Below, piece by piece: positions 52,940 to 53,883 of a stretch of DNA of 64,000 nucleotides. Under the pieces are notes generated by a model. That model had not been told where the DNA came from and did not search any database. It worked only from the letters and a program-made list of their open reading frames with translations. Source of the DNA: an uncultured Actinomycetota bacterium (GTDB taxonomy: Bacteria; Actinomycetota; UBA4738; HRBIN12). Made by a program: the position numbers and the translations under genes. The DNA lies in assembly GCA_963746335.1 (NCBI GenBank), contig CAVVAK010000006.1, positions 156,066-220,065 of the forward strand. The letters run 5' to 3'. How positions within the stretch are numbered: the stretch's first letter is position 1; every line of letters begins with the position of its first letter.

Positions 52940-52978
52940 GCGCCGGGACGCGGGGCCTCACGGCCCCGCGCCCGGCGC
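52940..52978 (-). terminator. Hairpin after the Cys-rich micro-ORF
   Basis: GCGCCGGG(A)CGCGGGGCC-TCAC-GGCCCCGCGCCCGGCGC, long stem with one bulge, 12 nt past the stop. Confidence 0.7.
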
Positions 52979-52990
52979 AAATGGGTCATC

Positions 52991-53041
52991 TCAGCAGCAA
53001 CCCGGTGGGCAGCAGTCGGGCGGGCAACACGGATCGTTCAT
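52991..53041 (-). CDS. Cys-rich 16-aa micropeptide MNDPCCPPDCCPPGCC
   Basis: ATG AAC GAT CCG TGT TGC CCG CCC GAC TGC TGC CCA CCG GGT TGC TGC TGA, preceded by AAGGAGGTGA (53049-53058) 7 nt upstream; followed by a hairpin. Confidence 0.82.
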   Translation of the reverse strand: MNDPCCPPDCCPPGCC

Positions 53042-53078
53042 GTCGGACTCACCTCCTTTCCGCGTGCGTTCGCGCTCG

Positions 53079-53126
53079 TATCGATGGCGGTCGATATGTT
53101 GGATTACGTATCGACATGTGTCAATA
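53079..53126. promoter_or_regulatory. Tandem palindromic putative ArsR operators
   Basis: TATCGA-N6-TCGATA (53079-53096) and TATCGA-N6-TCAATA (53109-53126), 30 bp apart, between arsR and the micro-ORF. Confidence 0.75.
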
Positions 53127-53134
53127 TGACGTGG

Positions 53135-53470
53135 ATGAAGCTCCTCCAGGAGATCGACGCGGCCTGCTGCGCTCCCTTGCTGTCCGCCCCGCTGGGCGAG
53201 GAGGACGCCGAGACCTTGGCGACGGCCCTTCAGGCACTCGCCGACCCGGCCAGGCTTCGCCTGCTGAGCCTGATCGCCTCCTGCCCGGGGTCCGAGGCAT
53301 GCGGATGCGACCTGACGACTCCGGTCGGCCTCTCACAACCCACGGTGAGCCATCACCTGAAGGTGCTCCACGAAGCCGGGCTCTTGGATCGGGAGCGCCG
53401 CGGCAAGTGGGTCTACTTCAAGGTGCGACCGGAACCGCTCGCCTCGCTCCGCGCGGCGCTCTCGCCCTGA
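53135..53470 (+). CDS. arsR: ArsR/SmtB family metalloregulator
   Basis: N-terminal CC, ALADPARLRLL, EACGCDL, SQPTVSHHLKVL..AGL, RGKWVYF; start may be 53126. Confidence 0.9.
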   Translation: MKLLQEIDAACCAPLLSAPLGEEDAETLATALQALADPARLRLLSLIASCPGSEACGCDLTTPVGLSQPTVSHHLKVLHEAGLLDRERRGKWVYFKVRPEPLASLRAALSP

Positions 53471-53883
53471 CCCGTCAGGTCGTCGAGGAGGATCTGAACC
53501 CGTCCGTCGATCTCGTCCCGGATCAGACGGACCTGGTCGAGAGACTTCCCGGCTGGGTCGGTGAGATCCCAGTCCTCGTAGCGGATGCCGGGGAAGACGG
53601 GGCACGAGTCACCACACCCCATCGTGATCACGACATGGGCTGCCCGCACGACGTCCTCCCGAAGCAGCTTCGGCCGCTCCGCCGAGATGTCGATGCCGAT
53701 CTCCGCCATCGCCTGGAGCACCGCGGGGTTCAGGCGGTCGGCCGGCTCGGAGCCCGCCGATCGCACCCGGACCCGGCCGGCCGCGTGCCGTTCGAGCAGG
53801 GCGGCCGCCATCTGGCTGCGTCCCGCGTTGTGCACGCAGACGAACAGGACCTCGGGCGGGTCGGACATCCTTGCTCGCTCCAT
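53413..53883 (-). CDS. arsC: Arsenate reductase, LMW-PTP fold
   Basis: LFVCVHNAGRSQMA P-loop, TMGCGDSCP resolving Cys pair, WDLTDPAG; start 53883 or 53868. Confidence 0.9.
   Translation of the reverse strand: MERARMSDPPEVLFVCVHNAGRSQMAAALLERHAAGRVRVRSAGSEPADRLNPAVLQAMAEIGIDISAERPKLLREDVVRAAHVVITMGCGDSCPVFPGIRYEDWDLTDPAGKSLDQVRLIRDEIDGRVQILLDDLTGQGESAARSEASGSGRTLK

Follow-up and report, generated by a model that had tools for sequence, protein, structure and literature searches.

The minus strand of a 64,000-nucleotide stretch of DNA from an uncultured actinobacterium (assembly GCA_963746335.1, contig CAVVAK010000006.1, positions 156,066 to 220,065; hereafter the window) was found to carry, at 53041..52991, a 16-codon open reading frame (ORF) that is almost certainly a real, translated gene linked to the repressor gene arsR. 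The gene itself, selection on its peptide, its linkage to ArsR and to the operators between the two genes, and its independence from the genes downstream are established here. From its sequence and genomic setting, the peptide, a short run of vicinal Cys pairs, is on balance likely to bind As(III) and to act as a buffer or chaperone. The window comes from contig C6 of a 2.58-Mb metagenome-assembled genome (MAG) that is 78.9% complete. An earlier note on this DNA had described the ORF as a ribosomally made chelator, induced through ArsR, whose six Cys could bind two As(III). This interpretation was borne out in part: the gene, its ties to ArsR and to arsenic, the missing efflux pump and the oversight by gene callers all stood, whereas neither the stoichiometry built on six Cys nor sequestration in place of export was supported as stated.

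The micropeptide gene

Translation of ORF 53041..52991 (minus strand, 16 residues) yields MNDPCCPPDCCPPGCC followed by a stop codon. The elements of the transcription unit proposed for it are as follows.

52991..53041, minus strand: micropeptide gene with start ATG 53041-53039 and stop TGA 52993-52991; three vicinal Cys pairs, the conserved core being the C-terminal CCPPGCC
53049..53059, minus strand: Shine-Dalgarno site AAAGGAGGTGA, 7 nt upstream of the peptide ATG
52940..52978, minus strand: GC-rich stem-loop beginning 12 nt past the stop, with a stem of ~17 bp and no U tail

Six of the 16 residues (37.5%) are Cys and none is aromatic. The near-ideal Shine-Dalgarno site that the earlier note had described was located at 53059-53049, and almost all of the 48 family ORFs listed likewise have a GGAGG-type site ahead of their assigned start. 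The hairpin claimed at 52940-52978 was likewise confirmed, with arms at 52940-52947/52971-52978 and 52946-52957/52962-52973; the 146-nt RNA that includes it folds at -75.5 kcal/mol, compared with a shuffle mean of -57.4 (z = -4.75, 0 of 200 shuffles as good). Wherever sequence past the stop is available, it forms a strong hairpin (-25 to -59 kcal/mol in one locus set and -31 to -60 in the other). Its sequence diverges between genera, and within the window's own genus double-sided changes were observed in 6 of 12 consensus pairs. We infer that this stem-loop is a terminator or 3'-end structure of a monocistronic peptide mRNA, insulating the downstream gene glmM. A search of Rfam returned zero matches at E up to 1 within 52700-53300.

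Selection on the encoded peptide

A degenerate three-pair peptide pattern, with the reversed pattern as control, was searched over 201 same-family genomes (33 genera). The pattern matched 29 of the 201 genomes and 7 of the 33 genera, and the control matched 9 genomes. At 25 of the 30 returned loci the match formed the end of a small ORF preceded by GGAGG, and at 24 of these 25 an ArsR orthologue (53-100% identity) lay divergent at a distance of ~100 bp. A search of this kind presupposes the peptide, and the test was therefore repeated starting from ArsR. With the window's ArsR as query, 169 of the 201 genomes contained an orthologue at E up to 1e-20, and 88 loci were taken blind to the peptide. 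A locus was counted as positive when, within 460 nt divergent from arsR, a small ORF ended in CC-stop with at least four Cys in its last 16 residues. Such an ORF was present at 18 of 19 assessable loci where ArsR was at least 75% identical, at 32 of 36 loci between 60 and 75%, at 13 of 17 between 54 and 60%, and at 2 of 14 below 54% identity. In total, 63 of the 72 assessable loci with an ArsR at least 54% identical carry the divergent ORF, compared with 1 of 757 control windows taken elsewhere in the same loci.

The ArsR-collected set omits L099 and L108 (from the unpublished genomes G147 and G199), the ArsR matches in the unpublished genomes G163, G022, G119 and G107 and the partial match G062:C281; it further leaves out 46 weaker matches plus the listed matches below E 1e-29. 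Eleven ArsR matches from the pattern search (G127, G178, G065, G106, G064, G143, G170, G058, G060, G018 and G080) also lie outside it, and at least nine of these carry the peptide, so that the fractions given by ArsR identity are conservative. The unpublished genomes G147, G199, G169, G163, G022, G119, G107, G128, G032, G053, G583 and G587 are included in the tallies of the three-pair scan, the ArsR survey, the Acr3, ArsB and MIP counts, the phylum sample and the order scan.

Nine 16-residue genes from the window's genus, collected through ArsR, are nine distinct DNA sequences with 10 variable sites in the last 14 codons, every one of them a third position. Pairwise comparison over these 14 codons revealed 145 synonymous and 0 nonsynonymous codon differences. 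Variation confined to third positions indicates that selection acts on the peptide and not on the DNA or RNA. The comparison of arsR orthologues that the earlier note had named as a check thus returned both a conserved Shine-Dalgarno site with a short CC-repeat ORF and purely synonymous variation within it.

The peptide family

Members of the family are ~10-20 residues long and share a near-invariant core, CC-P-x-[G/D/E]-CC, placed directly before the stop, usually with an acidic residue and a Pro or Gly ahead of the first Cys pair. Examples include MNDPCCPPDCCPPGCC, MDPDCCPPGCC, MEPCCPGECC, MNEGCCPSGCC, MRIDGPCCPPGCC and M..DPCCPDCPDCPPGCC. The three-residue spacer is found in 48 of the 66 tails listed, the others either breaking the first Cys pair or being spaced otherwise, as in L141 with CC-PD-CC. 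S, E, A, G, I or L can take the place of the second Pro of the core, and aromatic residues are nearly absent family-wide (one member with Phe and one with Tyr). About half of the window's genus has an 11-residue form, MDPDCCPPGCC, with four Cys, and the number of CCPPx units differs between sister species. This variation in unit number identifies a tetracysteine, and not the six Cys emphasised at first, as the conserved unit.

A strict-core scan over 182 genomes of the window's order (at least 85% complete), using a pattern that permitted TGG after the core, found the core in 50 genomes; all 52 matches end in TGA, TAG or TAA and 0 in TGG, and the reversed control gave 2 matches. By family the counts were 44 of 138 genomes in f1, 3 of 15 in f2, 2 of 16 in f3 and 0 of 12 in four other families; two of the three f2 matches come from the unpublished genomes G583 and G587, and the published one, G242, was inspected. 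A phylum-wide sample of 401 genomes contained convincing members solely within this order. There, 10 of 24 matches end in TGG and were not counted as members, and two matches from other families with a true stop (G237 and G332) were rejected for lacking a Shine-Dalgarno site or for lying inside a long open frame. An exact GTDB-wide scan for the longer form returned 41 stretches, 36 of which are small ORFs in Actinomycetota MAGs; two Pseudomonas matches, one Archangium match and one Brocadiaceae match proved to be read-through or other-frame. On a Halobacteriales MAG contig (L065, 758-844) a 29-residue ORF, MNCTAHADCEPTADCPPDCPPDCCPPGCC, has the same tail; it lies upstream of another ORF and, further on, of a pyridoxal phosphate-dependent enzyme gene (PF00291), and no ars genes were seen there. 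Cultured carriers were not found, and two inspected plasmid arsR loci (Rhodococcus and Streptomyces) are without a CC-tail ORF.

As the earlier note had anticipated, gene callers miss the peptide, which is absent from the protein collections searched and from Pfam and NCBIfam. Four family ORFs of 20-44 residues gave no exact match in a 15-billion-protein collection, and a word-based homologue search with a 42-residue extended frame gave nothing at 23-74 residues and one protein (P0001) at 75-2000 residues. P0001, a 117-residue JGI ORF and the sole database protein with the peptide tail in that search, appears to be an over-extended ORF call through the arsR-peptide intergenic region. Neither Pfam nor NCBIfam gave a match at E up to 10 for four members or extended frames of 20-42 residues, the 16-residue peptide being below the 20-residue limit of these tools. 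By the same four frames, the family does not belong by sequence to any described metallothionein family in Pfam or NCBIfam; it does share the traits of metallothioneins in being small, very Cys-rich and all but free of aromatics.

A conserved, putative promoter and operator module

The ORF lies head-to-head with arsR across two palindromes, as originally described, and the intergenic regions of 48 ArsR-collected loci were aligned to examine the DNA between the two genes.

53119..53127, read on the minus strand: ATATTGACA, containing TTGACA; putative -35 box of the peptide promoter, with rare single-base variants among the 48 aligned regions
53096..53101, minus strand: CAACAT; putative -10 box of the peptide promoter, 17 nt from TTGACA
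53079..53115, no strand: putative ArsR operator region of two overlapping dyads spanning the promoter spacer, the -10 box and the predicted transcript start
53135..53470, plus strand: arsR, encoding an ArsR/SmtB repressor (HTH_5); probably leaderless

On the peptide strand, a fixed order is seen in the 48 loci: ATATTGACA, an [A/G]TCGAT half-site, CAAC[A/G]T, ATCGAC-N4-[A/G]TCGAT, a variable spacer, GGAGG and the start codon. CAAC[A/G]T or CAATAT occupies the -10 position in most of the loci and a few diverge. This arrangement suggests that TTGACA and CAACAT form the peptide promoter, which would give the mRNA a 5' untranslated region (UTR) of ~48 nt. A consensus scan of 52850-53250 returned 0 promoter-like and 0 terminator-like sites and no sigma-70 match at the scanner's own thresholds; the proposed promoters rest on conservation and not on such a scan. 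The reverse complement of ATATTGACA, TGTCAATAT, sits 7 nt ahead of the arsR ATG at 53135 (6-7 nt across loci), where it could serve as the extended -10 element of a leaderless arsR.

The two palindromes resolve into TATCGA-N6-TCGATA at 53079-53096 (dyad 1) and GTCGATATGT-N6-ACGTATCGAC at 53090-53115 (dyad 2), and ATCGAC-N4-[A/G]TCGAT plus the upstream [A/G]TCGAT is kept across the aligned loci. Since the dyads overlie the spacer, the -10 box and the start site, bound ArsR would shut the peptide promoter. The motif ATCGACNNNNRTCGAT has one site in the assembled genome, between the peptide gene and arsR, which makes the peptide the only recognisable ArsR target besides arsR itself in the assembled 79% of the genome. 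The retention of this architecture across the aligned loci supports the proposed control by ArsR.

The arsR start was placed at ATG 53135 by orthologue alignment, replacing the start at 53084 given previously. The product has the winged-helix HTH_5 domain (PF01022, E 3e-14) and matches NF033788 at 90 bits, above the 55-bit cutoff; it scores 103 bits against the NCBIfam Rv2640c family, under the 155-bit cutoff. Its cysteines comprise an N-terminal CC (Cys14/15) and a CxC (Cys59/61; numbering from ATG 53126), and the four are kept in 64-66 of the 66 orthologues linked to the peptide and in all 21 of the unlinked ones. The best match in the PDB is 6j0e, an arsenic-responsive ArsR (E 8.8e-21), with which the CC aligns to a CC. 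The CxC is conserved at the R773-like position, and the equivalent of Cys55 is not conserved (32% Cys at a neighbouring column). Known three-Cys As(III) sites comprise Cys32/34/37 in R773, Cys95/96/102 in AfArsR and Cys15/16 with Cys55 in CgArsR (PMC11868830). By this comparison, the four Cys encoded here appear to combine features of the C. glutamicum and R773 sites in one hybrid set.

Arsenic genes and the scarcity of efflux pumps

The gene that converges on arsR is as follows.

53413..53883, minus strand: arsC-like gene of the low-molecular-weight phosphatase family (LMWPc, E 4e-19) with P-loop CVHNAGRS, convergent with arsR

The convergent arrangement had been noted before and was confirmed; the 3' ends of arsR and the arsC-like gene overlap by 58 nt (window 53413-53470). 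The product scores 75-78 bits against the NCBIfam arsenate reductase models, under their cutoffs. No ATCGA-type operator was seen by eye upstream of the arsC-like gene, and the single copy of the strict motif in the assembled genome is the one beside the peptide gene. ArsC adjoins the pair in all loci of the window's genus and in 17 of the 25 pattern-found loci, at which ArsR and ArsC were located by tblastn. Elsewhere, neighbours named by Pfam include LMWPc ArsC, an ArsP_1 permease with Thioredoxin_3, MIP and MFS, and a flavin monooxygenase-like pyridine-nucleotide flavoprotein gene shares an operon with arsR. At L039 the peptide directly follows an ArsM-like methyltransferase, and at L053 the next gene after it is a fusion in which an ArsR-like N-terminal part (by eye) is joined to an ArsC-type LMWPc domain. 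The link to arsenic drawn in the earlier note is thus supported by ArsC, the ArsM-like methyltransferase, ArsP and MIP as neighbours, and by ArsR paralogues linked to Acr3.

The absence of acr3 and arsB, claimed for the window, holds for the assembly and for nearly the whole genus and family. Zero matches to acr3 (TIGR00832), ArsB (PF02040) or ArsP_1 were obtained in the whole assembly, itself 78.9% complete. Within the genus, Acr3 occurs in one genome of 27 (1 of 13 when only those of high quality are counted), and ArsB likewise in 1 of 27. Family-wide, 10 of 201 genomes have Acr3, or 6 of the 85 of high quality, and six of those ten belong to genus g20. In G043, G084 and G152, Acr3 lies ~1 kb from an ArsR that is ~50% identical, and this Acr3-adjacent paralogue bears the same four Cys; at the one such locus inspected (L174, in G084), a CC-tail ORF was not found.

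The sole member of the genus with Acr3 is G020 (L009/L210 on G020:C63 and L097/L211 on G020:C75). In this genome an inserted element resembling an insertion sequence, with 18-nt inverted repeats and a transposase-like ORF by eye, splits the arsR-peptide promoter, and the peptide, CCPPDRCPPGCC, has lost one Cys. As an anecdote, this case fits a peptide that is redundant with a pump.

Proposed function of the peptide

The function we favour, an As(III)-binding buffer or chaperone, would operate as follows. With no metalloid present, ArsR would sit on the ATCGA-type dyads over the spacer, -10 box and start site of a strong promoter (TTGACA, 17 nt, CAACAT) that stands back-to-back with arsR's own leaderless promoter. 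As(III), either imported or made from arsenate by the adjacent ArsC, would bind the ArsR cysteines and release the repressor. The short monocistronic mRNA, with its near-perfect Shine-Dalgarno site and terminal hairpin, would then be translated at a high rate to give a burst of peptide. Two or three vicinal Cys pairs, drawn together by a Pro-x-Gly turn, would trap As(III) and perhaps also methylarsenite, Sb(III) or further thiophilic ions. Cellular dithiols would thereby be shielded and free As(III) buffered at a lower level, and through this feedback ArsR would repress again. The peptide could be a sink for the As(III), or a carrier delivering it to other ars enzymes or to a route out of the cell.

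A more far-reaching version, which we put forward tentatively, is that this uncultured order, poor in Acr3 and ArsB, handles arsenite by means of a gene-encoded 'arseno-thionein' of 10-20 residues with four or six Cys, whose CC-Pro-x-Gly-CC hairpin chelates As(III) or two methylarsenite molecules. Whether as an intracellular sink or as an exported carrier, it would take over from efflux pumps as the chief effector under ArsR. If so, no smaller gene product dedicated to metalloid resistance would be known, and the FlAsH tag would have a counterpart in nature.

Several observations weigh against a dedicated As(III) chelator. Stoichiometric sequestration is costly, at four to six Cys per one or two As, and the Cys pairs are three residues apart, as against two in the CCPGCC tag. 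At 9 of the 72 loci whose ArsR is at least 54% identical, the ORF is absent. Of the 27 genomes in the genus, 26 encode a MIP channel at a site away from this locus; As(III) made by ArsC could already leave through it down its gradient, so that sequestration need not take the place of export. The genomes are MAGs and the window's own is incomplete, which makes the absences soft. The ArsR Cys set (N-terminal CC and CxC) also resembles that of Cd/Pb/Zn sensors of the CadC type. Finally, near-identical tails, VPCDCPP[E/D]CCPP[D/G]CC, occur behind a Cys-bearing MerR-family regulator at L031, L055 and L058; such wiring of sister peptides to another metal sensor means that specificity could exceed arsenic.

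The last two points favour the strongest alternative, in which the peptide acts as a micro-metallothionein for soft metals at large (Cd, Zn, Cu, Hg or Pb) under the same regulation, with the nearby arsenic genes belonging to mixed metal(loid) islands. The ArsR pattern would then correspond to the four-Cys sites of Cd/Pb sensors, and many thiophilic ions are bound by Cys-rich peptides. The informative neighbours, however, are arsenic genes (ArsC, the ArsM-like methyltransferase, ArsP and MIP), 0 of 26 neighbours tested in Pfam is a P-type ATPase or a cation diffusion facilitator transporter, and it is next to Acr3 that the paralogous ArsR with the same four Cys is found. We regard this explanation as unlikely. 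Among the MerR-linked loci, L031 (1885-2435) and L058 have a second Cys-rich ORF, MTDGGCPCCGCPCGDCGGSGS[R/K], and a terminator after the peptide. A related VPCDCPP[E/D]CCPP[D/G]CC peptide also occurs at L047, the MerR regulator having been seen for the other three loci.

Alternatively, the role of the peptide could be that of a thiol cofactor or redox partner, whether as a dithiol donor for the ArsC-type reductase, as a hand-off partner or anti-repressor of ArsR, or as the precursor of a modified peptide. ArsC is adjacent throughout the window's genus, vicinal dithiols can reduce, and arsR is the sole universal partner gene. At 8 of the 25 pattern-found loci, however, there is no ArsC within ~1.5 kb; no maturase, reductase or transporter consistently travels with the peptide, and there is no sign of a recycling system. 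Such a role is improbable.

It is slightly more improbable still that the ORF is a regulatory leader in which ribosome pausing, at Cys codons when arsenic stress depletes thiols or cysteine, or at Pro-Pro, tunes the hairpin and the next gene, here glmM. PPG and PPD are ribosome-stalling motifs, and the layout is suggestive, with the hairpin 12 nt past the stop and, in the window's genus, the glmM start 73 nt past it. Mycobacterial polycysteine small ORFs are a documented precedent as cysteine-responsive attenuators, but they are leaderless and head cysteine-metabolism operons (bioRxiv 10.1101/834739). The ORF analysed here differs on each count, having a strong Shine-Dalgarno site, its own predicted ArsR-gated promoter, the 5' UTR implied by it and varied downstream genes. 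The next gene is glmM in the window's genus and elsewhere ArsC, ArsP with a thioredoxin-like protein, MIP or MFS; it is convergent at 11 of 39 distinct loci by a crude gene caller, and homology identified three convergent arrangements, with truA, an Eis-like GNAT gene and OsmC. The arsR-peptide pair also moves as a cassette: in genus g10 (L072) it lies between rplM and truA, and arsC and the DUF2007 gene remain between rpsI and glmM. As the downstream gene is varied and often convergent, the ORF is not a leader peptide. Moreover, the residues kept include the non-Cys D-P, P and G/D, the ORF always ends exactly at CC, and a conserved -10-like TAGCAT before glmM suggests that glmM has a promoter of its own. 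Polyproline arrest dependent on EF-P was considered and rejected, the second Pro being replaceable and unconserved.

That the ORF arose by chance in GC-rich intergenic DNA in which only DNA or RNA elements are conserved, as its shortness and the abundance of spurious ORFs in high-GC DNA might suggest, is excluded for practical purposes by the conservation tests (63 of 72 loci as against 1 of 757 control windows; 145 synonymous and 0 nonsynonymous differences, in third positions only), by the true stop that ends 52 of 52 matches and by a peptide tail that is kept where the flanking spacer and hairpin sequences diverge.

Flanking genes

Downstream on the peptide's strand lie glmM (51586-52917) and then glmS, and rpsI and rplM lie upstream. 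The 22 nt before the glmM ATG (window 52917-52939, minus strand), CAGGTAGCATCACCTGCCC, are nearly invariant across the window's genus; within them are the -10-like TAGCAT, 9 nt ahead of the ATG, a short hairpin formed by CAGGT and ACCTG, and the sequence CACCTG, which is complementary to the Shine-Dalgarno site of the peptide gene. This region may be glmM's own promoter, giving a near-leaderless mRNA. A DUF2007 gene encoding 95 residues (53952-54239, plus strand) is kept between rpsI and arsC in the window's genus, and in genus g10, where the arsR-peptide cassette has another location, it remains with arsC. Immediately upstream of rpsI is a gene (54629-55426, minus strand; 265 residues with a long Lys/Ala/Thr-rich C-terminal extension) that we take to be rplM from its position and sequence. 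A look for RNA runs covering window 52400-54000 found none. Contigs of run X20, regarded as RNA only by guess, reach glmM up to 52961 and parts of arsR and arsC and leave the bin 52994-53047 bare; neither result has a bearing on expression.

Significance and comparison with known systems

The literature and database searches returned no description of an ArsR-linked cysteine micropeptide, and CCPPGCC was not encountered in the literature searched. The peptides thus form a new, unannotated micropeptide family in ars clusters, with a regulatory logic that is already known from SmtB/SmtA. A functional gene of 10-16 codons, invisible to annotation pipelines, is here accompanied by a defined module of promoter, operators, Shine-Dalgarno site and terminator. 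Should the peptide bind arsenic, it would represent a new class of ars determinant, a ribosomal micropeptide chelator under ArsR, and could explain how a widespread group of soil actinobacteria can have arsC and arsR when Acr3 and ArsB are so scarce among them. CCPPx units are gained and lost rapidly, giving 16- and 11-residue forms in one genus, which amounts to a natural experiment on binding capacity, and the CC-P-x-G-CC motif may find use in arsenic biosensing, bioremediation tags and biarsenical labelling.

Mycobacterial polycysteine small ORFs resemble the present family in being unannotated, Cys-rich, actinobacterial and followed by RNA structure; they are leaderless, head cysteine-metabolism operons and act through ribosome pausing, whereas the genes described here are Shine-Dalgarno-led, predicted to be ArsR-gated and followed by variable or convergent genes (bioRxiv 10.1101/834739). 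Actinobacterial arsR-acr3-arsC and arsR-aquaporin-arsC operons on Rhodococcus and Streptomyces plasmids have a related ArsR and a similar upstream TGTCAATAT / GTCGATAT signature. Their ArsRs, however, align over residues 40-111 only and head exporter operons, with no CC-tail ORF upstream at the two loci inspected, whereas in the present family of genomes arsR diverges from the micropeptide gene and Acr3 is seldom found.

With respect to the predicted ligands, it is established that As(III) is bound by vicinal Cys pairs, both in ArsD and in the CCPGCC tag. The As(III)-binding cysteines of ArsD are Cys12, Cys13 and Cys18 (PMC12415280). Cys1, Cys2 and Cys7 of CCPPGCC have the same i, i+1, i+6 spacing, and both products are encoded in ars clusters. 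ArsD is a folded protein of ~120 residues that docks on the ArsA ATPase, a fold impossible for 16 residues, and the peptide is not a member of that family. The engineered tetracysteine tag, CC-X-X-CC and optimally CCPGCC, binds biarsenicals (PMC6710359). It shares with the peptide a Pro/Gly turn and two vicinal Cys pairs, each of which chelates one arsenic in the tag and may do so in the peptide. The tag has a two-residue PG spacer and binds organic biarsenicals, whereas the natural family has three residues (P-x-G/D/E) and does not conform to CC-X-X-CC, so that the likeness is chemical only.

Phytochelatins are made enzymatically. Like the peptide, they are short, Cys-rich and built from repeats, and they chelate the arsenic and cadmium that induce them, much as is predicted of the peptide with arsenic; they consist of (gamma-Glu-Cys)n (PMC8041291), whereas the present product is gene-encoded and ribosomal.

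The peptide family differs from SmtA-type proteins, which are folded, zinc-finger-like, ~55 residues long and handle Zn or Cd, in its 10-20 residues, its CC pairs, its lack of a Pfam or NCBIfam match (20-42 residue frames) and its arsenic gene context. The closest parallel in regulation is nonetheless with SmtB-SmtA and AzuR-NmtA (PMC8790569), in which an ArsR/SmtB repressor gene adjoins that of a small Cys-rich metal-binding product and controls its promoter, and the logic of sequestering the inducer and feeding back on the repressor, as proposed here, would be alike.

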